Assembly (NCBI GenBank): GCA_020346465.1
Contig: CP070783.1
Span: 1,666,614-1,730,613, forward strand
DNA length: 64,000 nucleotides
DNA from: Deltaproteobacteria bacterium
Lineage (GTDB): Bacteria; Desulfobacterota; Deferrimicrobia; Deferrimicrobiales; Deferrimicrobiaceae
Direction of reading: 5' to 3'
Shown: positions 9,898-27,558 of the stretch, piece by piece
How positions within the stretch are numbered: position 1 is the first letter of the stretch
Layout of the letters: every line of letters starts with the position of its first letter
The notes under the pieces: model-generated
What the model was told of the DNA's origin: nothing
Seen by the model: only the letters and a program-made list of their open reading frames with translations
Databases searched by the model: none
Translations under genes and position numbers: made by a program

Positions 9898-10998
9898 TCA
9901 CGCGCCTCCGCCGATCAGGAGCAGGACAAGCCCCGTCACGAAGATGTTTGCCAGGGACAGGGGCAAGAGCACCTTCCACCCCAGGCGCATCACCTGGTCG
10001 TACCGGAACCGGGGGATCGTCCACCGGACCCAGATGAAGAGCCATGCGAAGAAGAGCAGCTTCCCCACGAACGCCCCGATCCGCAGGAGAAGCACGAGGG
10101 GACCGGGGAGCCCGAGGGCCGCCCCTCCGGGGAGCACGAAGCCGGAGTCGGCGAGGTAGGGGACCTGCCAGCCGCCGAAGAACAGCGTCGCGATCAGGGC
10201 GGAGCCGACCACCATGTGGACGTACTCGGCCATGAAGAAGATCGAGAACTTGAAGGAGCCGTACTCCGTGTGGAACCCCGCGACGATCTCCGACTCCCCC
10301 TCCGGGAGGTCGAAGGGGGTCCGGTTCGCCTCCGCGTAGACCGCCACGAGGAAGAGGAGGAATCCGAGCGGCTGCACGAACACGCCCCACTTCGGCACGA
10401 TCCCCCACAGGAGCGTCCCCTGGGAGGCCACGATCTCCGAGAGACGGACCGACCGGAAGACCATGACCAGGCCGATGATGGAGAGCCCGAGGGAGACCTC
10501 GTAGGAGATCATCTGCGCCGAGGAGCGCAGTCCCCCCAGGAGGGGATACTTGCTGTTGGAGGCCCACCCCGCCAGGATCACGCCGTAGACCGCCAGCCCG
10601 GAGATGGCGAAGATGTAGAGGATCCCCACGTTCAGGTCCGCCACCTGCAGGGCGACCTCGCGGCCCGCGATCACGACCGGCGGCCCGACGGGGACGACGG
10701 CGAAGGTCATCAGCGCCGGGGCCAGGGCGAACATCGGGGCCATCTGGTAGAAGAGCCGGTGGGCGCCGTCGGGGATGAAGTCCTCCTTGAACAGGAGCTT
10801 GAGCGCGTCGGCAAGGGGGTGGAAGAGGCCCCCGAGCGTCAGCCCCAGGATCTTCGCCCGGTTGGGGCCGCGGCGGTCCTGGATGTAGGCCGCGCCCTTG
10901 CGCTCCGCCCACACGAGGATCGGGACGAGGGAGAGGGTGAAGGCGAGCATCACCGCCACCCGCACCACGGAGACCACGAGGTCGAACAGCCCGCTCAT
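9898..10998 (-). CDS. nuoH: NADH-quinone oxidoreductase subunit H
   Basis: [50 protein letters not shown]; start MSGLF overlaps nuoG stop. Confidence 0.93.
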
Positions 10999-12575
10999 CC
11001 TTTCCCTCCCGCGATCTGCCCCAATTCCCCGAGGGACTCGTAGCTCATCCCGGCGAAGGGGGCCTCGGACCGCGCGATCGCCCGGAACACCGACGCCTCC
11101 CCGGCGAACGTCCACCCCGCGCCGAGGCGGTTCGCCAGCCCGACGAGGATCTCGATGCCGCCGCGTGCATTCCCCCGGGGGGGGAACCCCATCCAGAACC
11201 GCTGGACGCGCCCCGCGTGGTTGGTGAACGTCCCCCCGCGCTCGACGAACGACGCGGACGGCAGAACGGCGTGCGCCGCGAGGGAGACGGCCCCCTCGTT
11301 CGTCCCGACCTGGGCGACGAAGGGCACGCGGGAAAGAAGCTCCGCGGTCCTCTCCCCGGGGAAGTCGGCGAGCTCGTTGCCGAAGACGAGCAGGGCCTTT
11401 ACCTCCCCCCCCTCGATCTTCCGGACGATGTCGTCGAACTTCTCCTCGGAGATCCCCAGGAGCTGCGCCCCGCGGGTGTTGGGGTTCTTGTCCGCCTTGA
11501 TGAGGAAGTCGTCCGAGAGCCCGTTCCCCGAAGAGCGCGGGGAGAACCCGACGTTCGGCGTGCGCAGGACCTCCTCCGCCAGCTTCCGCGCGAGGTAGAG
11601 CTCCTCGTTGGAGAACGCGGGCGAGGCGATGACGGCGACCGACGCGGCGCCGTGCGCTTCGACCGTCTCCCAGAGGCGGAACGCGGCAAAGGACAGGGCC
11701 GCCTCCCACGCCTCCGCCTTGAGACCCCCGTTCTCCCGGACCACGGGGGTGAGGAGCCTCGCCTCGTTCGCCTTCTTGTACTCGAGCCTTCCGGGATCGC
11801 ACATCCAGGTCCGGTTGACGTCGTCGTTCCGCCGGGGCTTGAGGCGGTAGACGATGTCCTCCTTGAAGTGCGCCTCCACGTTGCAGCCGTTGGCGCATCC
11901 CGGGCAGATCGACCGGGTGCCCCGCAGGAACCAGACCCGGCACTTGAACCGGAAATCCTTGCTGGTCAGCGCCCCCACGGGGCAGATGTCCGCCAGGTTG
12001 CCCGTGTACTGGTTGTCCAGCGGCCTGCCGGGGAAGATCGAGATCTCCGAGTGGTCCCCCCGCCGGAAAAATTCGAGCTCGGAGGTGCCGGTGACCTCCT
12101 GCAGGAACCGGATGCAGCGGGAGCAGAGGATGCACCGCTCCGCGTCCAGGACGATCTGCCCGCCGATGTCCTGCACCTTCTTCTTGTGCACCTTGTCTTC
12201 GAAGGCGAACCGGCTCTTGTGCAGGCCGTACTTCATGTAGTAGATCTGCAGCCCGCACTCGCCGGCCTGGTCGCAGATCGGGCAGTCGACCGGGTGGTTG
12301 ATGAGCATCAGCTCCAGAACGCCCGTGACCGCCTGCCTCACCTTCTCGGTGTCGGACTTGACCACCATCCCCTCGGTCACGACGGTGTTGCAGGCGATCT
12401 GCAGCTTGGGGAACTTCTCCACCTCCACCAGGCACATGCGGCAGTTCCCCGCGATCGAGAGGTTCGGGTGGTAGCAGTAGTGGGGGATCTCGATCCCCAC
12501 CGTCTTCGCGGCCTGGAGGACGGTCGTCCCCTCGGGGACGTCTACGGAGATTCCGTTGAGCGTGAAGTTCGGCAT
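10995..12575 (-). CDS. nuoG: NADH-quinone oxidoreductase subunit G (short, 526 aa)
   Basis: N1b (HYCY..GNCRMC..AC), N5 (HPVDCPICDQAGEC), N4 (CILCSRC..CPVGAL) and N7-type (CPGCANGC..C) ligand sets. Confidence 0.9.
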   Translation of the reverse strand: MPNFTLNGISVDVPEGTTVLQAAKTVGIEIPHYCYHPNLSIAGNCRMCLVEVEKFPKLQIACNTVVTEGMVVKSDTEKVRQAVTGVLELMLINHPVDCPICDQAGECGLQIYYMKYGLHKSRFAFEDKVHKKKVQDIGGQIVLDAERCILCSRCIRFLQEVTGTSELEFFRRGDHSEISIFPGRPLDNQYTGNLADICPVGALTSKDFRFKCRVWFLRGTRSICPGCANGCNVEAHFKEDIVYRLKPRRNDDVNRTWMCDPGRLEYKKANEARLLTPVVRENGGLKAEAWEAALSFAAFRLWETVEAHGAASVAVIASPAFSNEELYLARKLAEEVLRTPNVGFSPRSSGNGLSDDFLIKADKNPNTRGAQLLGISEEKFDDIVRKIEGGEVKALLVFGNELADFPGERTAELLSRVPFVAQVGTNEGAVSLAAHAVLPSASFVERGGTFTNHAGRVQRFWMGFPPRGNARGGIEILVGLANRLGAGWTFAGEASVFRAIARSEAPFAGMSYESLGELGQIAGGKG

Positions 12576-12582
12576 CCTCGTC

Positions 12583-13851
12583 CTAGAACCGGTTTCCGTA
12601 CGGGCATTTTTTCTCCCGGAGATGCCCGTCGAATTCCTCGCGGAATTTCCAGATGAACGACTGGGCGGGCATCACCGCGGCGTCGGCCAGCGGGCAGATC
12701 GTCCTGCCCAGCATGTTGTCGCAGACCTCCAGGATCAGCTCCACGTCCCCGTTCCGCCCCTGGCCGTTCTCGATGCGGTGCAGGACCTTCGCCAGCCAGC
12801 CGCACCCCTCCCGGCAGGGGGTGCACTGGCCGCACGACTCGTGGGCGTAGAAGTTCATGAGCACGGAGAGGGCGCGGACCATGCAGGTCCCCTCCGGGAT
12901 GACGATGACGCCGCCCGACCCGGCCATCGTGCCGATCTTCTGCATCGATTCGATGTCGAAGCCCACGTCGATCTCGTCGGCCCGCAGCACCGGCGTGGAG
13001 GAGCCGCCGGGGATCACGGCCTTGAGCGCCTTCCCGTCCCGGAGCCCCCCCGCGTGCTCGTAGATGATCGACCGCAGCGACGTCCCCACGGGCAGTTCGT
13101 AGACGCCCGGCTTCTTCACGGGGCCGCTGACGCAGATCAGGCGGGTCCCGCCGTCCTTCTCCACCCCCAGGGAGGCGAATTTCTCCCCCCCGTGGGTGAC
13201 GATCCAGGGGATGTCGGCGATCGTCTCCACGTTGTTCACGATCGTGGGCAGTCCGAACGCCCCTACCGAGGCGGGGAAGGGGGGCTTGACCCGGGGCCAC
13301 CCGCGCTTCCCCTCGAGGGAGTTGATCAGGGAGGTCTCCTCCCCGCAGATGTAGGCGCCGGCGCCGAGGTGGACGGTCACCTCCAGGTCGAATCCCGTGC
13401 CGAGGATCCCCTTGCCCAGGTACCCCTTCGCGGTCGCCTCGTCGATCGCCTCCTGCACGATCTCCGCCTCCCGGACGAACTCCCCGCGGATGTAGACATA
13501 GCAGGTGTGGGCCTCGAGGGCGTAGCAGGTGATGGCGATCCCCTCGATCAGGAGGTGGGGTCCCCGGGTCATGATGAGCCGGTCCTTGAACGTCCCCGGC
13601 TCCCCCTCGTCGGCGTTGATCACCAGGATCCGCGGACGGGAGAGGTCCTTGGGGAGGAACCCCCATTTGACCCCGGCCGGGAAGCCCGCGCCGCCGCGCC
13701 CGCGCAGGTTCGCCTTCCTCACCTCCGCCACGATCTCCTCTTTCGGCATCGAGAGCGCCTTGCGCAGGGCGCCGTACCCGCCGAGCTGCTCGTACGTCTC
13801 CGCGAAGCGGTACCGCTCGTTGCCGAAGTGGGTCGTCAGGACGAGTTCCAT
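12583..13851 (-). CDS. nuoF: NADH-quinone oxidoreductase subunit F
   Basis: LRGRGGAGFP, NADEGEPGTFKDR, YICGEETSL, ESCGQCTPCREG. Confidence 0.95.
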   Translation of the reverse strand: MELVLTTHFGNERYRFAETYEQLGGYGALRKALSMPKEEIVAEVRKANLRGRGGAGFPAGVKWGFLPKDLSRPRILVINADEGEPGTFKDRLIMTRGPHLLIEGIAITCYALEAHTCYVYIRGEFVREAEIVQEAIDEATAKGYLGKGILGTGFDLEVTVHLGAGAYICGEETSLINSLEGKRGWPRVKPPFPASVGAFGLPTIVNNVETIADIPWIVTHGGEKFASLGVEKDGGTRLICVSGPVKKPGVYELPVGTSLRSIIYEHAGGLRDGKALKAVIPGGSSTPVLRADEIDVGFDIESMQKIGTMAGSGGVIVIPEGTCMVRALSVLMNFYAHESCGQCTPCREGCGWLAKVLHRIENGQGRNGDVELILEVCDNMLGRTICPLADAAVMPAQSFIWKFREEFDGHLREKKCPYGNRF

Positions 13852-13869
13852 CGCCTTCGTTCCGATCCC

Positions 13870-14343
13870 CTACCGGAGCCCGTCGAGGATCGCGTCGACC
13901 TTGTCCTCGCTCAGGTCCTCGTAATAGTCGTCGTTCACCTGCATCACCGGGGCGGTGCCGCAGCTTCCCAGGCACTCCACCGTGGAAAGGGTGAACTTCC
14001 CGTCGGCGGTCGTCTCCCCGGGCCGCACGCCCAGCCTCCCCGCCACGTGCTCGATCAGGTGCTCCGCCCCCATCAGGGAGCAGGAGAGGTTCCGGCAGAC
14101 CTGGAGGTGGTACTTCCCCACCGGCTTCCGGTTGTACATGGTGTAGAAGGTCGCCACCCCCTCGACGCGGGCCGGCGTGAACCCGAGCAGGGAGGCGACG
14201 TAGGCGATGGCCTCCGCGCTGAGGTGGCCGAACTCGCGCTGGGCAAGATGGAGGGTGGGGAGGATGGCCGCCTCCCGGTTGGGATAGCGGGCAAGCATCC
14301 TCTCGTGCCTCGCGCGCGTGTCCTCGGAAAAGGCCAGGCTCAC
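13870..14343 (-). CDS. nuoE: NADH-quinone oxidoreductase subunit E
   Basis: VATFYTMY, VCRNLSC, VECLGSC; GTG start overlaps nuoD stop. Confidence 0.92.
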   Translation of the reverse strand: MSLAFSEDTRARHERMLARYPNREAAILPTLHLAQREFGHLSAEAIAYVASLLGFTPARVEGVATFYTMYNRKPVGKYHLQVCRNLSCSLMGAEHLIEHVAGRLGVRPGETTADGKFTLSTVECLGSCGTAPVMQVNDDYYEDLSEDKVDAILDGLR

Positions 14344-15560
14344 CGGTCCAGCTCTCCCGCGATGATGTTGACGCTGCCCAGGACGGCGATGAGGTCCGCG
14401 ATCATCCCCCCCTCGCACAGGTGCGGCATCCCCTGGAACAGGGGAAAGCACGGCGGACGGACCTTGATCTTGTAGGGCCCCCCGCCCCCCTTGCTGACGA
14501 TGTAGTAGCCGAGCTCCCCGTTGGCGGCCTCGGTGGCCGAGTAGACCTCGCCGGCGGGAACCTGGACGCCGTCCATGACGTGCTTGAAGTGGTTCATCAG
14601 CGCCTCGATGTTCTCGTACACGTCGGCCTTCTCCGGCAGGATGAACCGCGGGTCGTCCACGTTGACGGGCCCGCCCGGGAGCGCGTCGAGGGCCTGCTCG
14701 ATGATGCGCAGGGACTGGCGCATCTCCTCCATCCGGACCATGTACCGGTCGCAGGTGTCCCCCTGCTCCCCCACGGGCACGTCGAAGTCGAAGCGGTCGT
14801 ACACGAGGTACGGCTCGTCCTTGCGCAGGTCGAGGGGGACCCCGGCGGCGCGCAGGCACGGGCCGGTGAAGCCGCGGGCGATCGCCTCCTTCGGGGTGAT
14901 GGGCCCCACCCCCATCGTCCGCTCGATGAAGATCCGGTTCTTCGTGAGGAGGGCGTTCACGTCCGCGATCGCGGGGACGATCACGTTCCGGCAGACGTCG
15001 CGGCACTTCTCGACCCAGCCGTCGGGGAGGTCCCACATGAGCCCCCCGATCCGCGTGTAGGCCGTGGTCAGCCGGATCCCCGTCAGCGGCTCGATGAGGT
15101 GCATGTACACCTCTTCGCGGGGCTTCCAGAAGTACCAGAAGTTGGTCAGCGCCCCGATGTCGACCATGTTCGTCCCGATGCAGACCATGTGGTCGATGAT
15201 CCGGGAGAGCTCGCAGATGAGGACGCGGATGTACCGGCACCGCTCGGTGACCTCGATCCCGCAGAGCTTCTCGACGGCCATCACGTACCCGACGTTGTTC
15301 ATCAGGGAGGAGACGTAGTTCAGCCGGTCCGTGTAGGGGATCACCTTGGTCCAGGTGGCGTTTTCGGACTCCTTCTCGAAGCCGCGATGGAGGTACCCGA
15401 ACTCGGGGGTGAGCTTGAGGATCGTCTCCCCGTCCAGCTCCGCGATGAGCCGGAGCGTCGCGTGGGTGGCGGGGTGCGACGGGCCGATGTTGAGGATCAT
15501 CGGCTCGGCCTGCATGTCGAGCTTCCCCGCTTCCCGCCGGTATGCCTCGATCTCCGCCAT
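14340..15560 (-). CDS. nuoD: NADH-quinone oxidoreductase subunit D
   Basis: NIGPSHPATH, GYLHRGFEK, DRLNY, GELDR C-terminus. Confidence 0.95.
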   Translation of the reverse strand: MAEIEAYRREAGKLDMQAEPMILNIGPSHPATHATLRLIAELDGETILKLTPEFGYLHRGFEKESENATWTKVIPYTDRLNYVSSLMNNVGYVMAVEKLCGIEVTERCRYIRVLICELSRIIDHMVCIGTNMVDIGALTNFWYFWKPREEVYMHLIEPLTGIRLTTAYTRIGGLMWDLPDGWVEKCRDVCRNVIVPAIADVNALLTKNRIFIERTMGVGPITPKEAIARGFTGPCLRAAGVPLDLRKDEPYLVYDRFDFDVPVGEQGDTCDRYMVRMEEMRQSLRIIEQALDALPGGPVNVDDPRFILPEKADVYENIEALMNHFKHVMDGVQVPAGEVYSATEAANGELGYYIVSKGGGGPYKIKVRPPCFPLFQGMPHLCEGGMIADLIAVLGSVNIIAGELDR

Positions 15561-15566
15561 GCTCTC

Positions 15567-16058
15567 CTACTCCTGCGGCCCCACGGTCGGCTGGCGCCTG
15601 GCCTTCGGGTAATCCTTGCGCAGGGGGTACCCCTCGAACTGCTCGTACAGCAGGATCCTCTTGAGGTTCGGGTGACCGCGGAAGAGGATCCCGTACATGT
15701 CGTACGCCTCCCGCTCGAACCAGTCCATTCCGACCCAGACCGGGATGACCGAGTCGATCACCGGGTCCTCCTCCGGGACGCGGGCCTTGACCCGCACCCG
15801 GTGCTTCTTTTCCAGGGAATAGAGATGGTAGACCACCTCGAACCGGGGCTCCTCGCCCAGGTAATCCACCCCGGTCAGATCCATCGCGAAGTCGAACCTC
15901 AGGTCCGGGTCGTCCCGAAGGAAGGTGCAGATCTCGACGATCCTCTCCCGCCGGACGAGAGCCGTGTCGTCCCCGAAGTCGGAGTGGGTCGCCACGACGT
16001 CGCTCCCGAACCGCCCGGTCAGCTTCTGCAGCACGATGCTGTTGCGTTCCTCGGCCAT
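15567..16058 (-). CDS. nuoC: NADH-quinone oxidoreductase subunit C
   Basis: WFEREAYDMYGILFRGHPNLKRIL..GYPLRKDYP. Confidence 0.93.
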   Translation of the reverse strand: MAEERNSIVLQKLTGRFGSDVVATHSDFGDDTALVRRERIVEICTFLRDDPDLRFDFAMDLTGVDYLGEEPRFEVVYHLYSLEKKHRVRVKARVPEEDPVIDSVIPVWVGMDWFEREAYDMYGILFRGHPNLKRILLYEQFEGYPLRKDYPKARRQPTVGPQE

Positions 16059-16070
16059 TCCCCGTCCGCC

Positions 16071-16568
16071 TCAGATCTTGATGGGCCAGCGGTCCCGGGC
16101 CCGGGGGGCCCCGGTGTCGATCATCTTCTGGATCAGGACGATGGAGTCGATGATCTGTTCCGGGATCGGCGGGCACCCGGGGATGTAGATGTCGACGGGC
16201 AGGAACTTGTCGATCCCCTGGACCACGGTGTAGTTGTTGTAGAACCCCCCGGAGGAGGCGCACGCCCCCATCGCCACCACCCACTTCGGCTCGAGCATCT
16301 GGTCGTGGATGCGCTGCAGGACCGGCGCCATCTTGTAGTTGATGGTCCCCGCCACGAGCAGCATGTCGGCCTGGCGGGGGGAGAACCGGATGACCTCGGC
16401 CCCGAACCGGGCGATGTCGTAATGGGTCCCGAACGCCCCCATCACCTCGATCCCGCAGCACGCGGTGGCGAAGGTGAACGGCCAGATCGAGAACCTTCGT
16501 CCCCAGGCGAGCAGCGCCTCGAACCGGGTGGTGAAAAACCCCGGGCCGCCGTCTTTCGCGCGGGTCAC
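16071..16568 (-). CDS. nuoB: NADH-quinone oxidoreductase subunit B
   Basis: [32 protein letters not shown]; GTG start overlaps nuoA stop. Confidence 0.93.
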
Positions 16569-16948
16569 TGCCAATCGAGCGCCCCCTTCTTCCAGGCGTA
16601 GATCAGACCCACGAGAAGGATTCCCACGAAGATCGCCATCTCGAGGAAGCCGAACAGGCCGAGATCCCGGAAGAGGACCGCCCACGGGTAGAGGAACGCC
16701 GTCTCCAGATCGAAGAGGATGAAGAGGAGGGCGACCAGGTAGAACTTCACCGACACGCGCACGGAGGCGGACGTGAAAGGGTCCACGCCGCACTCGTAGA
16801 CGCTGTACTTGATCCTCTCATACCGCTTGGGACCCAGGGCCTGGGAGAGGAAGACGAACCCCACCGACATTCCGACGGCGATGATCAGGAGCAGGAGGAT
16901 GGAGAAGTACGGGTCGGAAAACCGGATGGTGGAAACGAGGTTTGCCAC
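16565..16948 (-). CDS. nuoA: NADH-quinone oxidoreductase subunit A (14-subunit cassette)
   Basis: [39 protein letters not shown]. Confidence 0.93.
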
Positions 16949-16961: not shown

Positions 16962-18440
16962 TCAGTTGGTCAGCAGGCGCACAGACGACTCGGCGATGCG
17001 GATCACGGGCTCCCAGTATACCCCGAACAAAAGCGTGGGGACGACCAGGATGGCCAGCATGACCCGCGGCACGAAGGCCACCGTGAGTTCTCCCGTATGC
17101 ACCGGCTCTTCCAGAAACATCACCTTCACGATCCGGGCGTAGTAGTACAGGGAGACCACGCTGTTGAGAGCCGCCACGAGGGCCAGCCAGTAGACTCCCC
17201 GGTTGATCACCTCGGCGAACAGGTAGACCTTGCCGATAAATCCCGAAAACGGCGGAATCCCGGTCAGCGCGAAGAGGAAGACGGCCAGGGAGACCGCGGC
17301 GAGGGGCGCCCGCGTGCCCAGGCCGGAGAAATCGGAGATCTCCTCGCTCCGGCTTCCGTTGGCGACCAGGACGACCACGTAGAAGGCGCCCAGGTTCATG
17401 AAGAGATACACGATCAGGTAGAAGAGGATCGCCTTGAGCCCCACGGAGGTGAGCAGGACGAACCCCATCATCATGTACCCGGCGTGCGCGATCGAGGAGT
17501 AGGCCAGGAGGCGCTTCACGTTGCTCTGGTTGATGGCGACCAGGTTCCCCACCGTCATCGTCACCGCGGACAGCACCGCGAACAGGAAGGGCCAGTCCAC
17601 GGAGGAGGAGAGCTTCCACATCCCCTCGGCTCCCTCGGGGGAGGCGAAGACGGTGTAGAAGAACCGGACCAGGATCGCGAACCCCGCGGCCTTGGGCCCG
17701 ACGGACAGGAAGGCCGTCACGGGGATGGGCGCCCCCTCGTACACGTCGGGGCTCCACATGTGGAACGGCACGGCGGCGATCTTGTACCCGAACCCCACGG
17801 TCACCATCACGGCCGCCAGCAGCGCCGGCAGGGCGGACGTCCCCGAGGCGAGGGCGTTCCCGATCACGGAGATCTGCGTGGAGCCCGTCATGCCGTACAG
17901 GAGCGAAAACCCGTAGATCATCACCCCCGAGGCGGTCGCCCCGTAGACGACGTACTTCGTCGACGCCTCGTTGGACAGGTCTTTCCCCTTGAGGTAGCCG
18001 GCGAGCAGGTACGAGGGGATCGAGACCAGCTCGAGCGCGAGGTAGAGCATCACGATGTCGCTGGCCGAGGAGAGCAGGAACATCCCGAGCAGCACCGAGA
18101 GGAGGAAGATGTAGTACTCGGCCTGCGACTTGTCCGTGAGCTCGTAGCAGTCGATCGACATGAAGACGACGATGAGCGTCGCCAGCGCGGTCAGCACCTT
18201 GAAGAAGACCGCGAAGCCGTCCAGCACGACCATCCCCTCGAACAGCCCCGTTCCCGCCCCCGCGGGGGTCATCCACGCGAAGAAAAGCGCCGACCCCGTT
18301 CCGACCATCGCCAGGAGGGCCGCCGCGGGCGAACGCCGGTTCCTCCCGGCGACGTGGACGACGATGAGCAGCAGGATCGTCGCGGTGACCGCGAACTCCG
18401 GCAGGAAGTAGGGCAGGCTGGCCAGGTTCCCGAGACTCAC
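16962..18440 (-). CDS. nuoN: Complex I subunit N (11-subunit cassette)
   Basis: [46 protein letters not shown]. Confidence 0.92.
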
Positions 18441-18441: not shown

Positions 18442-19971
18442 TCAGATCACCATGTTCACGACGTCGACCAGCCGGACCAGGGACGCGTTCATCAGGTTGA
18501 GCACCGGCATCGGATACACCCCGAGGAGAAGCGTCATCAGCGCCAGCGGGGAGAGGCAGAACATCTCGCGGGCGTTGATCTCCTCGAGCTGGGCGTACTT
18601 GGGGTTGAGCGGCCCCAGGAAGACCCGCTGGAGCGCCCACAGGTGGAACGCGGCCACGATGATGATCCCCGAGGCGGAGATCATCACGATCGTCCGGAAG
18701 ACGTCGAACGACCCGATGAAAACCATCGCCTCGGCGACGAAGCCGGAGAACCCCGGCAGGCCCAGGGACGCGAAGAAGGCCACGGTGATGTAGAACGTGT
18801 AGACCGGGACGACGGCGCCCAGCCCCCCGAACCCGTCGATGTCGCGGTGGTGCGCCCGGTCGTAGACGACGCCGACCAGGAAGAACAACATGGCGGTGAT
18901 CATGCCGTGGGAGAACATCTGGAACGCCGCCCCGACCATCCCGGCCGGGGTAAGCGCCGCCATCCCCAGGAGGCAGAACCCCATGTGGCTCACCGAGGAG
19001 TAGGCGACCAGCTTCTTGAGGTCGGACTGCGCCATGGCGCACAACGCGCCGTATACGATGTTGATCGCCCCCAGGACGGCCATGGGAATGACGAACCACT
19101 TCGTCACGTCGGGGAACATCGGGAAGGAGATCCGCATCAGCCCGTACGTCCCCATCTTCAGGAGGATCCCCGCCAGGATGACCGAGATGGCGGTCGGCGC
19201 CTCGACGTGGGCGTCCGGAAGCCAGGTGTGGAACGGGAAGAGGGGGACCTTGATCGCGAAGCCGATGAAGAGCCCGAGGAACATGAGGATCCGGATGTCG
19301 AATCCCCGGAGCCACTCGTTGTGGGTCGACTGCTGCATGTAGTGGAGCATGTTGAAGGTGTGTCCGCCCGTCTCCGGGTCGGTCGTGTTGAAATAGAGCG
19401 CCAGCATCACCAGAAGCATCAGGACGGAGCCCAGGAGCGTGTAGAGGAAGAACTTGATCGCCGCGTACTCCCTGCGCGGCCCCCCCCAGATCCCGATGAG
19501 GAAGTACATCGGCAGGAGCATCACTTCCCAGAAGACGTAGAACAGGAAGAAGTCGAGGGCGCAGAAGACCCCCATCATGCCGGTCTCGAGGAGGAGGAGG
19601 AGGGCCATGTATCCCTTGATCTGCTTCTCGATATTCCAGGACCCGATCACCGCCAGGAAGGAGATGATCGCCGTGAGGATGATCATCGGCATCGAGATGC
19701 CGTCGGCCCCCAGGAAGTATTCCACGTTGATCGACGGGATCCAGCGGGTATGCTCCACGAACTGGAACTGGCTCGCCACGTTCACGCCGGCCACCGACCG
19801 GTCGTAGGTGAACCAGAGCTGGACCGCAAGGGGAACCGGCAGGAACGACGCCACGGCGGCGACCGTCTTGACGAGTTCGTCCCTGCCCCCGGGCAGCATG
19901 AGGATGACCGCCGCGCCGGCCAGGGGAAGAAACGTCATCAGGCTCAGGATGTGGCTGTTGATAAAGTCCAC
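18442..19971 (-). CDS. nuoM: Complex I subunit M (11-subunit cassette)
   Basis: GADGISMP, FWEVMLLPMYFLIGIWG, IKVPLFPFHTWLPDAHVEAPT. Confidence 0.93.
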   Translation of the reverse strand: MDFINSHILSLMTFLPLAGAAVILMLPGGRDELVKTVAAVASFLPVPLAVQLWFTYDRSVAGVNVASQFQFVEHTRWIPSINVEYFLGADGISMPMIILTAIISFLAVIGSWNIEKQIKGYMALLLLLETGMMGVFCALDFFLFYVFWEVMLLPMYFLIGIWGGPRREYAAIKFFLYTLLGSVLMLLVMLALYFNTTDPETGGHTFNMLHYMQQSTHNEWLRGFDIRILMFLGLFIGFAIKVPLFPFHTWLPDAHVEAPTAISVILAGILLKMGTYGLMRISFPMFPDVTKWFVIPMAVLGAINIVYGALCAMAQSDLKKLVAYSSVSHMGFCLLGMAALTPAGMVGAAFQMFSHGMITAMLFFLVGVVYDRAHHRDIDGFGGLGAVVPVYTFYITVAFFASLGLPGFSGFVAEAMVFIGSFDVFRTIVMISASGIIIVAAFHLWALQRVFLGPLNPKYAQLEEINAREMFCLSPLALMTLLLGVYPMPVLNLMNASLVRLVDVVNMVI

Positions 19972-19986: not shown

Positions 19987-22191
19987 TCAGAAAGCTTTCA
20001 CCAGGAATATGATCAGCACCCCGCCCGCCAGCACGAACACGTAGTGGTAGAGCTTCCCGGTCTGGAACCGGCGGAAGAAGGAGCCGCTGCCGATCGTGAC
20101 GTCGGCCACGCCGTTCACCGCGCCATCGACCACGTGGTTGTCAAATTTTCCGATGAGGAACGAGGCCCAGACGCCCAGCTGCGCGCAGAGGTTGACCAGC
20201 CCGTCGACCACGTACAGGTCGAACCAGCCCAGCGCGCGGGAGAGGGCCTTCGTCCCGTTGACGGCCGTCGCCTCGTACAGTTCGTCGAAGTACCACTTGT
20301 TGAGCAGGAAGGTGTGGACGGGACGGACCGCGGTCGCCACCTTCTCGGGATCGATCCACCGGAACCGGAAGACGACGAACGCCAGCCCGATGCCGAGCGT
20401 GCCGAACAGGACGGAAAGGTACATCGACCAGACGTGGGCCAGGTGATCCAGGTGCGCCTCGTGGGACGCTCCGTGCCCACCGGCCTCCGCTCCGGGCGCG
20501 GCCTCGTGCGGAACGGCCGGGGGATGCTTCTCCCCCTGCGGCGCCGGTACGGCATGTCCCGGCGTCCCGGGCCTTTCGGATGCGGCGGCCGCGTGGGCGG
20601 CCGGCTCGTGGCCCGCCCCCTTCGGCTCCGCGCTCTCCGCGGCGAAGGCGGCCCCGGCCGACGGGACGTGCAGGACGGAGTCGGCCGAGCCGGCGGAAGC
20701 CGGAACGGCATGGACGGCGGGAATCGCCGACGCGGGCGTCTTCACGAGGTCGCCGAACCAGCCGCTGTACCAGAAGGAGAAGGAGAGCCCCGCCAGGACC
20801 ACGAGAGGAACCCACATGTTGGGGGGCGACTCGTGGGCGTGGTCGAACTTGTGGCGGTCCTTCGGCTCCCCGAGGAACGTTCGGATCACCAGCCGGAACA
20901 TGTAGTAGGCCGTCATCCCCGCGGTCAGGAGGGCCCCCGCGAACAGGATCATGTGCTGCGGGTTCTTCATCCCGAACAGGAGGGCCGACTTGAGGATCAT
21001 GTCCTTGCTGTAGAACCCCGAGAAGAGGGGGACCCCCGCGATCGAGAGCGTGGCGATGAGGAAGGTGATGAAGGTGATCGGCATCTTCTTCCGCAGCGCC
21101 CCCATCTCGGTGATCTCCTGGCTGTGGACGGCGTGGATCACCGACCCGGAGCCGAGGAAGAGGCAGGCCTTGAAGGCGGCGTGGGTGGTCAGGTGCGCGA
21201 GACCTGCGGTGAAGCCCCCCACCCCGAGCCCCAGGATCATGTATCCGAGCTGGGAGCACGTGGAGTAGGCGAGGACCTTCTTGATGTCGGTGGCCGTGAG
21301 CGCGATCGTGGCCGTGATGAACAGGGTGAGCAGCCCGGTGTAGGCGATGAAGAGGAAGGCGTCCGGCGTGAAGATCGGGTAGACGCGCCCCACGAGGTAG
21401 ACGCCCGCGGCGACCATCGTCGCCGCATGGATCAGCGCCGAGACGGGGGTGGGGCCCTCCATCGCGTCGGGGAGCCAGACGTGGAGCGGGAATTGCGCGG
21501 ACTTGCCGATGGCGCCGCAGAAGATCCCGATCCCGGCCAGCGTCAGGAGGGTCCCTTCGATCTTTCCCTCCGCGATGCCCCGGAAGACCTCGTCGTACCC
21601 GAGCACCCCGGTCGTGGCGAACAGGAGCAGGAACCCGATCAGGAACCCGAAGTCGCCGATCCGGTTCACGATGAACGCCTTCTTCCCGGCGTCGGCGGCC
21701 GACTTCTTCTCGAACCAGAACCCGATGAGCGCGTAGGAGGAGAACCCGACCAGCTCCCAGAAGATGTAGATGAAGAAGAAACTCTCGGCCAGGACGAGCC
21801 CGAGCATGGAGAAGGAGAAGACGGAGAGGTAGGCGAAGAACCGGCTGTACTTCGGGTCGCCGTGCATGTACCCGACCGAGAACAGGTGGACGAGGAAGGA
21901 GACTCCGGTCACCACGACGAGCATCACGGCCGTCAGATTGTCCACGAGGATCCCCGCATTGATGACGAACCGGCCTTCCAGGGAGAGCCACGGGACCACG
22001 ACGTGGTACCGGAAGTTCGGGTCGTAGATCCGGAAGACCTCGAAAAAGATCACGATCGACATCACGAGCCCCGCGCCGATCGTGGCGAGGGATACCCAGT
22101 CCCCCTTCCGGGGGAGCCGCTTCCCGACCGCGAGGTTGACGAAGAAGGAGAGCAGCGGCAGGAACGGGATGATGTAGGCGTATCGGATCAA
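19987..22191 (-). CDS. nuoL: Complex I subunit L (11-subunit cassette), with extended lateral helix and ~100-aa low-complexity loop
   Basis: [32 protein letters not shown]; NKWY..QTG = 82 aa with FDxxVVDGxVN twice, 26 aa apart. Confidence 0.94.
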   Translation of the reverse strand: MIRYAYIIPFLPLLSFFVNLAVGKRLPRKGDWVSLATIGAGLVMSIVIFFEVFRIYDPNFRYHVVVPWLSLEGRFVINAGILVDNLTAVMLVVVTGVSFLVHLFSVGYMHGDPKYSRFFAYLSVFSFSMLGLVLAESFFFIYIFWELVGFSSYALIGFWFEKKSAADAGKKAFIVNRIGDFGFLIGFLLLFATTGVLGYDEVFRGIAEGKIEGTLLTLAGIGIFCGAIGKSAQFPLHVWLPDAMEGPTPVSALIHAATMVAAGVYLVGRVYPIFTPDAFLFIAYTGLLTLFITATIALTATDIKKVLAYSTCSQLGYMILGLGVGGFTAGLAHLTTHAAFKACLFLGSGSVIHAVHSQEITEMGALRKKMPITFITFLIATLSIAGVPLFSGFYSKDMILKSALLFGMKNPQHMILFAGALLTAGMTAYYMFRLVIRTFLGEPKDRHKFDHAHESPPNMWVPLVVLAGLSFSFWYSGWFGDLVKTPASAIPAVHAVPASAGSADSVLHVPSAGAAFAAESAEPKGAGHEPAAHAAAASERPGTPGHAVPAPQGEKHPPAVPHEAAPGAEAGGHGASHEAHLDHLAHVWSMYLSVLFGTLGIGLAFVVFRFRWIDPEKVATAVRPVHTFLLNKWYFDELYEATAVNGTKALSRALGWFDLYVVDGLVNLCAQLGVWASFLIGKFDNHVVDGAVNGVADVTIGSGSFFRRFQTGKLYHYVFVLAGGVLIIFLVKAF

Positions 22192-22220: not shown

Positions 22221-22523
22221 TCAGCCCCTGAGCTGGTCGGCCGCGTCCACCTCCACGGTGCCCGTCGTGGAGAAGAGCCGCAGGAAGATGGCCAGCGCAA
22301 CGGCCGCTTCGGCGGCCGCGAGCACGATGACGAACACGGCGAAGATCTGCCCCCCGATGAGATGGGAGACGTAGTGCGAAAACGCCACGAAGTTGATGTT
22401 GGCGGCGTTCAGGACCAGCTCCACCCCCATGAGGACGGCCACCGCGTTGCGCCGCGTCAGGATCGTGTACAGGCCGCAGCAGAACAGGGCGGCGGCGATG
22501 ACGAGAAGCTTGTCCAGAGCCAT
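22221..22523 (-). CDS. nuoK: Complex I subunit K (11-subunit cassette)
   Basis: LMGVELVLNAANIN, LAAAEAAVALAI. Confidence 0.93.
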   Translation of the reverse strand: MALDKLLVIAAALFCCGLYTILTRRNAVAVLMGVELVLNAANINFVAFSHYVSHLIGGQIFAVFVIVLAAAEAAVALAIFLRLFSTTGTVEVDAADQLRG

Positions 22524-23057
22524 CTACTTCGGTTCCTCCATGTCGGGTCTGGCGACGTCGGGCCGGTCCGGCCGCGAAAGGAGCGCCGCCCCGATGAGCG
22601 CGGCGAGCAGCAGCACGGAGGCGACTTCGAACGGGAGCAGGTACCGGGTCATCAGCAGTTCGCCGATCTCGGCCGTGGTCGGCTGGTAGGTGACCCGGGC
22701 CTTCAGGGCGAAGGCCGGGGACACCGCCGTGTACGCAAGCGTGCCGAACAGGACGAGGCAGATCCCCGCCGCGGGAAGTCGGAAGTGGACCGGGTTCGAC
22801 AGCTTGACGGAGGAGATCCGGTTCGACAGGAAGACCGCGAACATGATCAGCACGAGGATCCCGCCGACGTACACGAGCAGCTGCGTGGCAGCCAGGAAGT
22901 CCGCGGAAAGGAGCACGTACAACCCCGCGACGCCTCCGAAGGTGAACAGCAGCGCCACCGCGGAGTAGATGATGTTCCGCAGGGTCGCCACGAGGATCGC
23001 CGACCCCACCGTCATGGCCGCAAGCACGTAGAAGATCAGGTCCGCCGGTCCCTTCAT
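22524..23057 (-). CDS. nuoJ: Complex I subunit J (11-subunit cassette)
   Basis: QLLVYVGGILVLIMFAVFL, LPFEVASVLLLAALIGA. Confidence 0.92.
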   Translation of the reverse strand: MKGPADLIFYVLAAMTVGSAILVATLRNIIYSAVALLFTFGGVAGLYVLLSADFLAATQLLVYVGGILVLIMFAVFLSNRISSVKLSNPVHFRLPAAGICLVLFGTLAYTAVSPAFALKARVTYQPTTAEIGELLMTRYLLPFEVASVLLLAALIGAALLSRPDRPDVARPDMEEPK

Positions 23058-23788
23058 TCCTTCCCCTCCCCGCCCTCATCCCCGGCCTTCGCGGGCTCCT
23101 CTTCCGTCTCCTTCGCGGGCTTCTTCCCCGCCGCGTCGGCCGTTTCGGGATTCCCCGCCGCAAACGCCGGCGCGGCGGGCTGGATGAACGGCGCGGCCTC
23201 CTCTCTCGGGGGCTTCGGCGGGGGGGAAGGATCGGGGGCCTGCGGCGCGTCGGCTGGCTTCGCCGCCTTTTCCGCCTCGCCCTTCTCCGCCTCCGCTTTT
23301 GCCTTCTCCGCTTCCGCCTTCGCCGCGGCTTCCGCCACCTGCTTCGCCACGCGGCCCTTGACCGTCTCCGCATCCTCGGGGACGAAGTGGAGGATCAGTT
23401 CCCCGCGGCTGACCGTCGCCATCTCGTAGCCGCTGGTGTGGACGAGAGACTTCGGGGGGCAGACCTCGACGCAGAGCCCGCAGTACATGCAGCGCCCGAT
23501 GTTGATGTCGTAGGAGGCCAGCACCATCTTCTTGTCGGCGCCCCGGACGGCCTCGAGGGAGATGCAGTCGACCGGGCAGACCCTCACGCACATCGTGCAG
23601 CTCGTGCACCTCTTGATGTCGTTGTGCAGGAACCCCCGATACCGCTCCGACGGCTCCCAGCGCTCCTCCGGGTACTGGAGGGTGATCGTCTCCCTCGGGT
23701 CCACCCCGTACCGCGCGGTGATCCGCATCCCCTTCGCGGTGGTCGCCACCGCTTCCCAGATGTCGTATAGGTACGCTTTGAAGCCCAT
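23054..23788 (-). CDS. nuoI: Complex I subunit I (11-subunit cassette) with ~100-aa Ala/Pro/Glu/Lys tail
   Basis: TLQYPEE, CTSCTMCVRVCP, CMYCGLCVEVCP. Confidence 0.92.
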   Translation of the reverse strand: MGFKAYLYDIWEAVATTAKGMRITARYGVDPRETITLQYPEERWEPSERYRGFLHNDIKRCTSCTMCVRVCPVDCISLEAVRGADKKMVLASYDINIGRCMYCGLCVEVCPPKSLVHTSGYEMATVSRGELILHFVPEDAETVKGRVAKQVAEAAAKAEAEKAKAEAEKGEAEKAAKPADAPQAPDPSPPPKPPREEAAPFIQPAAPAFAAGNPETADAAGKKPAKETEEEPAKAGDEGGEGKE

Positions 23789-23792
23789 CCCG

Positions 23793-24911
23793 TTATCCGA
23801 AAAGCGACGCGATCATCTGGGGGATCCCCCTCCCCTGGAAGAGCAGCAGCCAGAGGGAGACGCCCAGGAGGTTGAAGAACGTGAGCGGAACCAGATACTT
23901 CCACGACATGCGCATGAGCTGGTCCACGCGCAGCCGCGGAAGGGTCCACCGGACCCACATCATGACGACGACGAGGCCCAGCGCCTTGCCGAGGAAGACG
24001 CCCAGCGAGAAGAGGTTGCCCCAGACGGCGGGGAGGGCCTCCGCGTTGAGGAAGGGGACGTGCCACCCTCCCAGGAAGCAGGCGGTCGCCAGGGCGGAGA
24101 CGACGAACATGTCCCCGTACTCGGCGAGGAAGAAGAAGGCGAACCGGATCCCGGAGTATTCGACGTGGTACCCGGCGACCAGCTCCGACTCGGCCTCCGG
24201 GATGTCGAAGGGGGTCCGGTTGGTCTCGGCCAGCGCGGCGACGTAATACAGGAAGAAGGAGAAGAAGGTGAACGGGTTGTGGAAGAGGTTCCACCCGAAG
24301 ATCCCGAACAGCCCCCCCTGGGACCGCACGATGTCCTGCAGGGAGAGGGAGCCGGCGATGAGGACCGCGGGGAGCAGCGCCATCCCCACGGGGATCTCGT
24401 ACGAGACGATCTGGGCCGCCGCGCGCATCCCCCCCAGGAGGGCCCACTTGTTGTTGGAGGCCCATCCCGCGACCAGCACGCCCACCACTACGAGCGAGGT
24501 GATTGCCATCACGTAGTAGATGCCGATGTTGAGGTCCGAGGCGATCAGCCCCACCCCGAAGGGGACGACCACGAAGGCCGCGAAGGAGCCGATGAAGACG
24601 AGGTACGGCGCCAGGACGAAGAGGAAGCGGTCCGCCTTGGCCGGGATGATGTCCTCCTTGAGGAGGAGCTTGATCCCGTCGGCCAGGAACTGGAGGATCC
24701 CCACGGGACCGACCCGGTTCGGACCGATGCGCGCCTGGATGTCGCCGGCCACCTTCCGCTCCACGTAGGTCGCCAGGCCCGCGTACGTCAGCGCGAAGGT
24801 GAGGACGACCGCGGCGACCACGACCATGATCAGGAGGGTGATCGTCCACAGGGGGACTCCCGAGAGCACCGGCACGGCGTCGACGAGGGATATCGCGAGG
24901 GATTCCAGCAT
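23793..24911 (-). CDS. nuoH: Complex I subunit H (11-subunit cassette)
   Basis: ERKVAGDIQARIGPNRVG, RAAAQIVSYE, ETNRTPFDIPEAESELVAGYHVEY. Confidence 0.93.
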   Translation of the reverse strand: MLESLAISLVDAVPVLSGVPLWTITLLIMVVVAAVVLTFALTYAGLATYVERKVAGDIQARIGPNRVGPVGILQFLADGIKLLLKEDIIPAKADRFLFVLAPYLVFIGSFAAFVVVPFGVGLIASDLNIGIYYVMAITSLVVVGVLVAGWASNNKWALLGGMRAAAQIVSYEIPVGMALLPAVLIAGSLSLQDIVRSQGGLFGIFGWNLFHNPFTFFSFFLYYVAALAETNRTPFDIPEAESELVAGYHVEYSGIRFAFFFLAEYGDMFVVSALATACFLGGWHVPFLNAEALPAVWGNLFSLGVFLGKALGLVVVMMWVRWTLPRLRVDQLMRMSWKYLVPLTFFNLLGVSLWLLLFQGRGIPQMIASLFG

Positions 24912-24913
24912 GG

Positions 24914-26044
24914 CTACCGGTCGATCTCCGGGAGGATGATGTCGAAGCTGCCGATGACCGCCACGATGTCGGCGATCATCAGCCCCCTGGTGATCTTCTC
25001 GAAGATGTTCATCGTCACGAAGGAGGGGGCGCGGATCTTGAGCCGGTACGGGTTCACGGTCCCGTCGCTGATCAGGTAGATCCCCGTCTCCCCCCGCGGG
25101 TTCTCGGCGCGGAAGTAGACCTCCCCCACGGGCGGCTTGAACACCCGGGGGACCTTGGCCATCACGGGCCCGTCGGGAATCTGGGCGATCGCCTGGCGCA
25201 GGATCTTCACGCTTTCCCGCATCTCGTTGATCCGCACCATGTACCGGTCGAAGCAGTCCCCCACCGTCCCCCGCTCCCCCGTCCCGACGCAGATGTCGAA
25301 GTCGATCTTCGGGTAGACCGAGTACGGCTCGTTCCTGCGGAGATCGAACCGGACTCCGGACCCCCGCAGGTTCGGCCCCGTGAGCCCGTAGGCGACGGCA
25401 TCCTCGGGCGTTGCCACCGCGACGTTGGCCAGCCGGTGGACGAAGATCTTGTTGTAGGAGATCAGGTCGTTGTACTCGGGGATCTTCGGATCGAAGTAGT
25501 CGAGGAACTCCTTCGTCTTCTCGAGGAACCGGTCCGGCAGGTCGGCCGAGACGCCGCCGATGCGGACGTAGTTGTACGTCAGCCGGTTCCCGCAGATCTC
25601 CTCGAACAGGTCGTTGATCCGCTCCCGCTCGCGGATGGCGTAGAGAAACGGCGTGAAGGCCCCCATGTCGGCGGTGAACGACCCGAAGGCGATCAGGTGG
25701 GAGGAGATCCGGTTCAGCTCGCACACGATCACCCGGATGTATTCCGCCCGCTCGGGAACCTCGATGCCGGCCAGCTTCTCCACGGCCCAGGCCCACGCCG
25801 CGTTGCAGTTCATCGAGGCGAGGTAGTCGAGCCGGTCGGTGAACGGCATGAACTGCGCGTAGGTGACCCGCTCCCCGATCTTTTCCAGCGCCCGGTGCAG
25901 GTACCCCACGTCGGGCCTGGCGTTGACCACGACCTCGCCGTCGGTCCGCAGGATCACCCGGAGCACCCCGTGGGTGCTCGGGTGCTGGGGACCCATGTTG
26001 ATGAGCATCTCCTGGGTGGGGAGCGCTTCCGCGCGGGCTTTCAT
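24914..26044 (-). CDS. nuoD: Complex I subunit D (11-subunit cassette)
   Basis: NMGPQHPSTHGVLR, GYLHRALEK, DRLDY, PEIDR. Confidence 0.94.
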   Translation of the reverse strand: MKARAEALPTQEMLINMGPQHPSTHGVLRVILRTDGEVVVNARPDVGYLHRALEKIGERVTYAQFMPFTDRLDYLASMNCNAAWAWAVEKLAGIEVPERAEYIRVIVCELNRISSHLIAFGSFTADMGAFTPFLYAIRERERINDLFEEICGNRLTYNYVRIGGVSADLPDRFLEKTKEFLDYFDPKIPEYNDLISYNKIFVHRLANVAVATPEDAVAYGLTGPNLRGSGVRFDLRRNEPYSVYPKIDFDICVGTGERGTVGDCFDRYMVRINEMRESVKILRQAIAQIPDGPVMAKVPRVFKPPVGEVYFRAENPRGETGIYLISDGTVNPYRLKIRAPSFVTMNIFEKITRGLMIADIVAVIGSFDIILPEIDR

Positions 26045-26511
26045 ACCTTGATCCCGTGGTAGAACTCGGGGTATTTGTAGTCCTTGCGCAGGGGGTGCCC
26101 CTCCCAGTCCTCCGGGAGAAGGATGCGGCGCAGATCCCAGGACCCCTCGAAGACGATCCCGAACAGGTCGAACGCCTCCCTCTCGTGGAAGTTCGCCGTG
26201 GGCCACACGCCGTCGACGCTGGGAAGGGACGGCGACTCTCTGGGCAGGTATGCCTTGACCCCGATCCGGTGCCCGATCGCAAGGGAGTGGAGGTGGTAGA
26301 CGACGGCGAACCGGTCCGGGTAGTCGACGCCGGACAGGCACATCAGCGAGTCGAACTTCATCGCGGGGTCGTCGCGAAGGAACCGTCCGATCTCACGGAC
26401 CTTCTCCGGGGAGACGACGAGGAACGCCGGGCGGAAGCCCTCCTCCTGGAGCTCCGACACCGCCTCGCCGAACGTTGCCCTGACCGCCTCGAAGATCGCT
26501 TTCGGTTCCAA
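26041..26511 (-). CDS. nuoC: Complex I subunit C (11-subunit cassette)
   Basis: ANFHEREAFDLFGIVFEG..LRRILLPEDWEGHPLRKDY. Confidence 0.93.
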   Translation of the reverse strand: MEPKAIFEAVRATFGEAVSELQEEGFRPAFLVVSPEKVREIGRFLRDDPAMKFDSLMCLSGVDYPDRFAVVYHLHSLAIGHRIGVKAYLPRESPSLPSVDGVWPTANFHEREAFDLFGIVFEGSWDLRRILLPEDWEGHPLRKDYKYPEFYHGIKV

Positions 26512-26520
26512 AAGGTTTCC

Positions 26521-27054
26521 TTACGCCTTCGCCGCCGCCGCGAAATTTCTCTTCTGGTCGATGATCTTCTGGAGCTTGATGATCCCGTCGATGAGCGCCT
26601 CGGGCCGGGGGGGGCACCCGGGGACGTAGACGTCTACCGGGACGAGCAGGTCCACCCCTTTGACCACGCAGTACGAATCCTTGTAGAAGGGCCCGCCCGT
26701 GTTGGCGCATGAGCCCATGGAAATCACGTACTTGGGCTCGGGCATCTGCTCGTACAGGCGGATCAGCCGCTCCGCCATCTTGTGCGTGACAGTCCCCGCG
26801 ACGATCATCAGGTCCGACTGCCGGGGGGTCGCCCGGAAGACGGCGCCGAACCGGTCGAGGTCGTACCGCGAGGCACCGGTCTGCATCAGCTCGATGCCGC
26901 AGCAGGCCGTCGCGAACAGAAGGTACCAGAGCGAGGACCTCCGGCACCAGTTGATGAACTTGTCGGCATTGCCCACCATGACATGCGCTTCGGGGCCGAG
27001 AGCCCCCGGGCCCGCAGCGGGTCCCGGGCCGCCCTGTGCAGGATCCTGGCTCAT
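26521..27054 (-). CDS. nuoB: Complex I subunit B (11-subunit cassette)
   Basis: [34 protein letters not shown]. Confidence 0.93.
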
Positions 27055-27446
27055 TTCCCTTCCTTCGCGGCAGGAGGTTCCTGGAGGGTGCGCACCCAGT
27101 CGAGGTCCCCCTCCTTCCAAAGGTAGGCCAGGCCCGCGAGCAGGATGACGATGAAGATGAACGCCTCCACGAACGCCAGGAGGCCCAGCCGCTTGAAGAC
27201 GACCGCCCACGGGTAGAGGAGCGCCACCTCCACGTCGAAGATGATGAAGATCAGGGCCACCACGTAGAAGCGGATGTTGAACTGCACCCAAGAGGAGCCG
27301 AACGGGACCTCCCCGCACTCGTACGTGGACAGCTTGACCGGCGTGGGGTTCCGGGGCTGGATCAGCCGGGAGATCCCCAGCATGAGGGCCACGGTCACCG
27401 CTCCCAGCAGGATGAACACCAGAACCGTTGCGTAATCAGCGAGCAT
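27051..27446 (-). CDS. nuoA: Complex I subunit A (11-subunit cassette)
   Basis: [39 protein letters not shown]; start 27446 or 27455. Confidence 0.93.
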
Positions 27447-27558
27447 CCCTGGCACACCGCCGGAAATATTCTATTCAAAGCAGAACCCCTCCGCATGACG
27501 AGAAGGGGCGGGCAGATCGCCTCGTTGCGTGGATACAGTATATCTATAACGTCCATTA

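Follow-up and report, generated by a model that had tools for sequence, protein, structure and literature searches.

The window analysed here, 64,000 nucleotides (nt) of contig CP070783.1 from a Deferrimicrobiaceae bacterium, has 66% G+C and carries 25 nuo genes in two head-to-tail clusters, all on the minus strand. The upstream cluster encodes an 11-subunit complex I-like enzyme, nuoABCDHIJKLMN, whose NuoL has a lateral amphipathic helix (HL) longer by 26 residues than that of canonical NuoL, in a cluster with a single nuoM. An insertion of this size has been connected with a fourth pumping subunit encoded by a second nuoM. Does the long helix of the window NuoL signify such a subunit, and if so, which gene supplies it?

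The window NuoL is very probably a typical member of a widespread complex I-like type that lacks nuoEFG and in which an ancient 26-residue duplication has become fixed. Within this family the window cluster is unremarkable; it is not a hybrid, nor is it a 2M complex that has degenerated. As to function, the reading tentatively put forward is that two NuoM protomers from one gene sit under a clamp with four slots.

A duplicated unit in the lateral helix of NuoL

The following features of the 11-subunit cluster define the helix (aa, amino acids; AF2, AlphaFold2).

19987..22191, minus strand: nuoL of the 11-subunit (nuoEFG-less) cluster, 734 aa, TTG start (NCBIfam; AF2 fold)
20056..20301, minus strand: HL, from NKWY to QTG, aa 631-712, 82 aa (sequence; AF2; family profile)
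20146..20223, minus strand: repeat unit 1, FDLYVVDGLVNLCAQLGVWASFLIGK, beginning FDLYVVDGLVN, aa 657-682, the extra unit relative to canonical NuoL
20068..20145, minus strand: repeat unit 2, FDNHVVDGAVNGVADVTIGSGSFFRR, beginning FDNHVVDGAVN, aa 683-708, running into RRFQTG and transmembrane helix 16 (TM16)

The NKWY to QTG span was 82 aa long, against 57 aa (aa 599-655, window 6605-6775) in NuoL of the 14-subunit cluster (6533-8569), which has a canonical helix with one motif. A sequence-only reading of this stretch had reported that difference and ascribed it to a tandem duplication of 26 aa; both were confirmed, the duplication at exactly 20146-20223. The repeated motif is FDxxV(V/I)DGxVN, so that the helix has two docking units instead of one. 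Units 1 and 2 repeat with a period of 26 aa and are identical at 10 of 26 residues and 40 of 78 nucleotides. Their ungapped BLOSUM62 score of 41 was matched by none of 20,000 shuffles. Judged from these comparisons, the two-unit helix is a genuine but old tandem duplication. Unit 2 is the one that aligned with the single motif of Paracoccus NuoL (8qby_L).

The protein scored above the cut-offs of the NuoL models NF005141 (647.6 bits; cut-off 556) and TIGR01974 (618.5 bits; cut-off 407.5), and MrpA and MrpD models scored far under theirs. Unlike rhizobial Green complex I, in which two MrpD-like subunits replace NuoL, the window has a single gene scoring best as NuoL. Its nearest homologues (72-99% identity) were named Ca. 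Deferrimicrobiaceae (= MBNT15). The 120 closest homologues compared were all Ca. Deferrimicrobiaceae sequences at least 72% identical to the window NuoL, and in 116 of them the helix measured exactly 82 aa.

Breadth and age of the two-motif helix

An exhaustive HMMER search with the last 147 residues of NuoL against 1.84 billion cluster representatives returned 761 hits below 1e-10. Among the best 150 of these 761 representatives the helix was 82 aa long in 102 and 83 aa long in 17. Forty diverse two-motif members aligned without gaps, with the Asp, Val and Gly positions invariant in both motifs. Unit 1 was conserved as strongly as unit 2, and D33, D38 and V41 were invariant.

One genome per GTDB species was also scanned with a degenerate DNA pattern placing two motifs exactly 78 nt apart, for which about 0.01 chance matches were expected (information-content estimate). 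The scan gave at least 119 two-motif loci from roughly 20 phyla; viral contigs held no match to the pattern. The phyla and classes represented included Acidobacteriota, Bacteroidota, Ignavibacteria, Chlorobi, Planctomycetota, Myxococcota, Chloroflexota, Zixibacteria, Omnitrophota, Armatimonadota, Binatia, Actinomycetota, Hyphomicrobiales and an archaeon, among others.

Within single proteins the two units did not vary in parallel, as they might if they had identical partners or underwent gene conversion: at variable positions the value was 0.091 vs 0.092, and the observed value was reached in 2980 of 5000 permutations. Each unit kept its own conserved pattern across the sampled lineages. Since the units keep separate patterns and resemble each other no more within a protein than between proteins, the sequences indicate one old duplication followed by divergence, and do not favour repeated recent events or gene conversion as the origin of the two-unit helix.

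Comparison with 2M and other published complexes

The 2M complex I of Chadwick et al. (2018), as described in the citing papers PMC6606698, PMC9040806 and PMC7117926, is encoded by clusters that usually lack nuoE and nuoF. According to PMC9040806, 2M NuoL has a 26-residue insertion in HL, postulated to span four pumping subunits, and published work places the HL insertion in all clusters with a second pumping subunit. The insertion in the window NuoL has the same length and the same place in HL as these citing papers give (82 vs 57 aa), and its 82-aa helix equals that of the three two-nuoM clusters found here (L060, L116, L118). The match to 2M complex I that the sequence-only reading had proposed stands. 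Unlike 2M complex I, the window cluster reads L-M-N and lacks the defining second nuoM; unlike Nitrospira clade 3, described in PMC6606698 as being without nuoH, it keeps nuoH.

A long helix beside one nuoM is a puzzle already in print for Ca. Manganitrophaceae. In the account of Yu et al. (2022, mBio, PMC9040806), NuoL of both Complex_I_1 and Complex_I_2 carries the HL insertion, and gene content and order are described as canonical with a single nuoM. These authors present the insertion as a curiosity and offer the same alternatives as the sequence-only reading. By this published description, the Ca. Manganitrophaceae clusters pose the window's puzzle in another phylum (Nitrospirota).

Closer to the window, Ca. 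Deferrimicrobium borealis SHF-111 has adjacent nuoABCDHIJKLMN and nuoA-N clusters (Begmatov et al., 2022, PMC9386147), a tandem that matches the two window clusters. The curated gene table for this near-complete genome gives exactly one nuoM per cluster, and the paper makes no mention of NuoL helix length.

Number of nuoM genes beside the long helix

The remainder of the 11-subunit cluster and the adjoining 14-subunit cluster were laid out as follows (ORF, open reading frame).

22221..27455, minus strand: nuoA-B-C-D-H-I-J-K of the 11-subunit cluster, without nuoE/F/G (ORF translations)
18442..19971, minus strand: nuoM, sole copy in the 11-subunit cluster, 509 aa (TIGR01972, 602.5 bits)
16962..18440, minus strand: nuoN of the 11-subunit cluster, 492 aa (TIGR01770, 403.8 bits vs NDH_I_M, 172.3 bits)
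3196..16948, minus strand: 14-subunit nuoA-N cluster, downstream (ORF translations, phmmer, NCBIfam)

The 11-subunit cluster extends from 27455 down to 16962 in the order A-B-C-D-H-I-J-K-L-M-N, with nuoD adjoining nuoH. Only 15 nt separate nuoL from nuoM, which starts after the nuoL stop codon, and 1 nt separates nuoM from nuoN. The contiguity of L, M and N noted in the sequence-only reading, with no room for a second nuoM, was thereby borne out, and the window held no third nuoM. The identities of the six antiporter-like genes were confirmed by NCBIfam, and a phmmer search with L, M and N against six-frame ORFs of at least 80 aa found no seventh antiporter-like ORF in the 64-kb window. No remnant of a nuoM pseudogene lay between nuoL and nuoN in the window. 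An oversized NuoM, NuoN, NuoJ, NuoK or NuoA, or an extra small gene, was considered as a filler of the span and rejected, since subunit sizes were ordinary and the gaps came to just 15 nt and 1 nt.

ORFs at the two-motif loci were classified against the window's 25 subunits, and in 82 loci it was possible to tell which gene comes next after the first nuoM. Among the matches listed, 79 of these 82 evaluable loci read L-M-N and three (L060, L116, L118) read L-M-M-N. For a Bacteroidetes chromosome and for two cultured organisms, Fontivita pretiosa and Solitalea longa, NCBIfam confirmed the order NuoM then NuoN; Melioribacter sp. OK-6-Me, Parapedobacter sp. SGR-10 and Flexithrix dorotheae were further cultured organisms among the matches with one nuoM and two motifs. 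A single nuoM is the normal companion of the two-motif helix, an association that emerged from this survey and belongs to no published definition, and the sequence-only view of this combination as unusual did not survive the count.

The gene before nuoH, among the listed loci, was nuoD in 20 and nuoA in 5 and was never nuoG, its canonical neighbour, so the two-motif helix goes with clusters that lack nuoEFG. All 25 listed loci with visible upstream genes were without nuoEFG. The nuoEFG-less family includes Bacteroidota, Chlorobi, Ignavibacteria, Acidobacteriota, Planctomycetota and Deferrimicrobiaceae. Among the 119 listed loci the only E/F/G homologues in view were at L029, a Hyphomicrobiales metagenome-assembled genome (MAG) with nuoE- and nuoF-like genes directly after nuoN of its two-motif cluster. 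In L030, L039, L062, L066 and L110, from three Anaerolineae/Anaerolineales MAGs, one Caldilineaceae MAG and one unclassified bacterium, nuoA was followed directly by nuoH-J-K-L-M. Cultured Chloroflexi have a published arrangement that agrees with this, nuoB, C, D and I being located elsewhere. Where the following gene was in view, in L039 and in a further Anaerolineae locus with nuoA out of view (L043), there was one nuoM, then nuoN.

Could the fourth position be filled in trans, by NuoM of the 14-subunit cassette, as the sequence-only reading had proposed in its hybrid pump, or by an unlinked nuoM or mrpD-like gene? The window itself is hospitable to the idea. Only 13 nt (16949-16961) separate nuoN of the 11-subunit cluster from nuoA of the 14-subunit cluster, and a promoter and terminator scan found no terminator-like site in this gap and nothing dividing the two cassettes, the 25 nuo genes of the tandem probably being one transcription unit. 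There is a clear relationship between the two NuoM proteins (phmmer, 4.7e-129), and the tandem is conserved across Deferrimicrobiaceae (also L001, L002 and L042). Elsewhere the idea fares poorly, for the same helix occurs with one nuoM in many phyla in which no second nuo cluster but unrelated genes come after nuoN. In L122 these are CinA and a cation-efflux gene, and in L123 they are ATP synthase genes. The window contained six antiporter-like ORFs, L, M and N of each cluster, and no extra nuoM. The relatives L001 and L002 (long contigs, Pfam labels) repeat the same gene order and the same tandem with one nuoM per cluster, as does the SHF-111 gene table (PMC9386147). Supply in trans is accordingly improbable, and nothing specific supports borrowing from the 14-subunit cassette.

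Clusters with two nuoM genes and the NuoL tree

The two-nuoM clusters L060, L116 and L118 all had a helix of exactly 82 aa. In each lineage the paired NuoM copies were each other's closest relatives, with 52% and 44% identity. By these comparisons the nuoM pairs arose by independent, lineage-specific duplications inside the long-helix family. One of the clusters, L118, belongs to a Methanobacteriota archaeon MAG with two nuoM (44% identical) and a two-motif NuoL at oriented coordinates 494-3988; in L121, a related archaeon, the contig ends after the first nuoM.

A neighbour-joining tree was built from 81 two-motif NuoL sequences, in which loci whose nuoM count could not be determined were labelled one-nuoM by default. 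L060 and L116 together made up a single small clade, surrounded by Acidobacteriota lineages that were scored as one-nuoM. The window NuoL grouped with Deferrimicrobiaceae, then with Chlorobi, Calditrichota, Ignavibacteria and Bacteroidota, and no second nuoM was seen in the lineages of this grouping, default labels included.

These results bear on the other alternative of the sequence-only reading, a former 2M complex that lost one nuoM. The helix is of 2M length, as such a history would have it. The tree places the window NuoL solely with lineages that showed no second nuoM, and the two-nuoM pair lies as a single small clade elsewhere, nested among lineages scored as one-nuoM. Two nuoM genes occurred in just 3 of 82 evaluable listed loci, with lineage-specific paralogues, and all family contexts examined had one nuoM. 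Loss of a nuoM is thus barely credible as the history of the window cluster. In sum, what the sequence-only reading had observed, the duplication and its match to 2M complex I, holds; the oddity of the single nuoM and the hybrid and lost-nuoM readings are not supported.

One other way of matching helix length to gene number was considered and rejected. If 82 aa were the baseline for three subunits, 108 aa would be expected in two-nuoM clusters, and these have 82 aa; helices of 108 aa and 134 aa occur in one-nuoM clusters.

Predicted structure of the long helix

The NuoL model was made with AF2 as a monomer from 76 diverse two-motif sequences, with a predicted local distance difference test (pLDDT) score of 81.9 and a predicted template modelling score of 0.79. 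It superseded a run with 43 close homologues, in which confidence over unit 2 was below 50. Apart from HL, the C-terminal extension comprises two further helices.

20365..20478, minus strand: TM15 region, aa 572-609 (AF2 helix, pLDDT above 90)
19993..20055, minus strand: TM16, C-terminal anchor helix, aa 713-733 (AF2 helix; family mean hydrophobicity 0.7-0.9)

The model matched NdhF1 and NuoL chains at TM-scores of 0.7-0.85 and contained the complete extension of TM15, long amphipathic lateral helix and TM16 (helices 572-609, 632-710 and 713-733). The helix at 632-710 was unbroken over 79 residues, its pLDDT falling from 88 to 62, and was followed by TM16. The extra residues are therefore predicted to extend the helix, as the sequence-only reading had supposed, and not to loop out; what the helix lies on is outside the reach of a monomer model. 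In the family profile the extra unit is amphipathic like the remainder of the helix, unlike TM16. Fully helical, 26 residues measure about 39 Å, roughly the width of one antiporter-like subunit.

A profile of the helix region was searched against all PDB sequences. Matches above threshold were NdhF1, NdhF3, chloroplast NdhF and the Paracoccus, mycobacterial and Thermus NuoL, and plant Nad5 matched weakly. Where both halves of the profile matched a solved chain, they fell on one single motif, and no two-motif chain was present among the solved NuoL, ND5 and NdhF chains matching the family profile in this search. Canonical chains (Paracoccus 8qby, T. thermophilus 4he8, E. coli 3rko, M. smegmatis 8e9g and cyanobacterial NDH-1L 6hum) share with the window NuoL the overall fold, the TM15-HL-TM16 extension, the NKWYFDELY start of the helix and its RRxQTG end. 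They have one FDxxVIDGxVN motif in 57-58 aa, in contrast to two motifs in 82 aa. By alignment count the span was 58 residues long in Paracoccus NuoL, whose complex has three antiporter-like subunits.

The motif aligned to R562-D563-P564-L565-N566 of E. coli NuoL. Belevich et al. (PMC3274701) describe this stretch as a kink in the helix that contacts NuoM in 3RKO. Because the motif aligns with the NuoM-contacting kink, the extra unit is a second copy of the NuoM-docking kink.

Helices with three or more units

Some NuoL proteins (P0149, P0271, P0310, P0274 and P0143) had three, four or five motif units, always with a period of 26 aa. Three multi-unit loci could be seen in context.

L122, 9001-11067: multi-unit NuoL
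L123, 9001-11040: multi-unit NuoL
L124, 1764-3830: multi-unit NuoL

In these three contexts (two three-unit, one four-unit) the order was A-B-C-D-H-I-J-K-L, then one NuoM and one NuoN. With multi-unit NuoL beside one nuoM, unit number and nuoM gene number are uncoupled. The three-unit P0310 has two identical units, which points to a recent duplication. In P0143 the last four units are nearly identical, from a recent expansion or possibly an assembly artefact. Two NuoL fragments, P0180 and P0236, had motifs 87-91 residues apart, separated by a spacer with two hydrophobic segments like transmembrane helices; the spacer resembles a membrane hairpin inserted into the lateral helix.

Decoupling invites the explanation that the extra length does nothing: the complex would have three antiporter-like subunits only, the helix would be kinked, curved or partly slack, and drift in repeat number would be neutral, with proton stoichiometry unchanged. 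It fits the restriction of 79 of 82 evaluable listed clusters to L, M and N, the variants with three, four and five units without added genes, and the identical units as a recent, tolerated duplication. The motif, moreover, contains a Gly and sits at the known kink, and insertions of 6-7 residues were tolerated at some helix positions in E. coli complex I, as that work is reported in PMC3274701. What such drift leaves unexplained is a length fixed at 82-83 aa across about 20 phyla in a gapless alignment, and a unit 1 as conserved as unit 2, which argues for a specific packing partner. The AF2 helix is uninterrupted, as far as the model goes, and the insertion in every two-nuoM cluster examined, on the account in PMC9040806, would not be expected were length neutral. 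A slack helix is unlikely on balance, though the likeliest of the rivals.

Alternatively, with three antiporter-like subunits again, the helix might pass beyond NuoN so that TM16 anchors at NuoK/J/A-NuoH and the whole membrane arm is clamped. The NuoK/J/A bundle is also about 39 Å wide, NuoH has an antiporter-like half-channel and the arm is quasi-periodic. On these general structural grounds such an overreach would be feasible, and it would account for one-nuoM clusters without any unusual stoichiometry. Two-nuoM clusters also have 82 aa, however, so that TM16 would need different docking partners in close relatives, and the RRxQTG-TM16 segment is conserved as in canonical NuoL. A straight four-unit helix of about 134 aa would reach, by our estimate, some 200 Å, longer than a three-antiporter arm, and would overshoot it. 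We regard overreach as rather unlikely.

Four proposed antiporter-like positions from three genes

The tentatively favoured reading is that HL, anchored by TM16, would clamp four antiporter-like positions in the order L-M-M-N and serve as their ruler. Both middle positions would be filled by NuoM made from the one nuoM gene. When nuoM later duplicated, as in 2M clusters, the two copies would share two positions that already existed, leaving helix length unchanged. We lean to these four slots because both docking motifs are equally conserved, because helix length is rigidly fixed, because independent nuoM duplications left that length unchanged, and because the insertion is reported (PMC9040806) in all two-nuoM clusters. 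Helices of three and four units with one nuoM and a 26-aa period were counted on the same side.

Several points weigh against it. For every family member the L:M:N stoichiometry is one that we infer from sequence, and we know of no precedent for one gene product in two non-equivalent complex I positions. The AF2 model is a monomer in which confidence over unit 2 drops to 62-72, and modelling tends in any event to render an amphipathic repeat on its own as a straight helix. Strict steps of 26 aa could come from unequal crossing-over and not from selection for a ruler, P0310 being a case in point. The E. coli tolerance of 6-7 residue insertions at some helix positions (PMC3274701) would allow some slack. 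The antiporter-gene search of the source genome covered the 64-kb window.

A broader and more doubtful version takes HL to be modular, a ruler built of 26-residue NuoM-docking units along which the product of a single nuoM would be incorporated once per unit. NuoM would then be used twice in the window complex and three or four times in some lineages. If so, widespread complex I-like enzymes would have four or more pumping modules from three antiporter genes, and 2M clusters would be the cases in which the repeated subunit was later duplicated as a gene.

If four positions are occupied, each two electrons would drive one proton more than in canonical complex I or, with the enzyme run in reverse toward a low-potential acceptor, would cost one more. 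In about 96% of sampled species, the insertion regarded as marking a fourth pumping subunit is present although a second nuoM gene is not. Either helix length and the count of pumping subunits are independent, and the structural argument for 2M complexes is weakened, or many bacteria have more pumping modules than antiporter genes, and the H+/e- ratio assumed for respiratory and reverse-electron-transport chains changes. The window locus itself is of minor weight, as a typical family member and an instance of a curiosity already published. The pattern (79 of 82 listed species, together with multi-unit helices beside one nuoM) is far broader than the one family for which we found it reported.

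Other features of the two clusters

Between TM14 and TM15 the window NuoL has an insert of about 80 residues.

20479..20712, minus strand: low-complexity insert rich in Ala, Pro, His and Gly, aa ~494-571 (pLDDT below 50 in both AF2 models)

The homologue proteins ranged from 647 to 750 aa in length, and a His/Glu/Ala-rich stretch of Paracoccus NuoL aligned weakly to the insert. NuoI of the 11-subunit cluster (23054-23788, minus strand; 244 aa) ends in a tail of roughly 90 residues with a high content of Ala, Glu, Lys and Pro; NuoI of the 14-subunit cluster has 161 aa and is without this tail.

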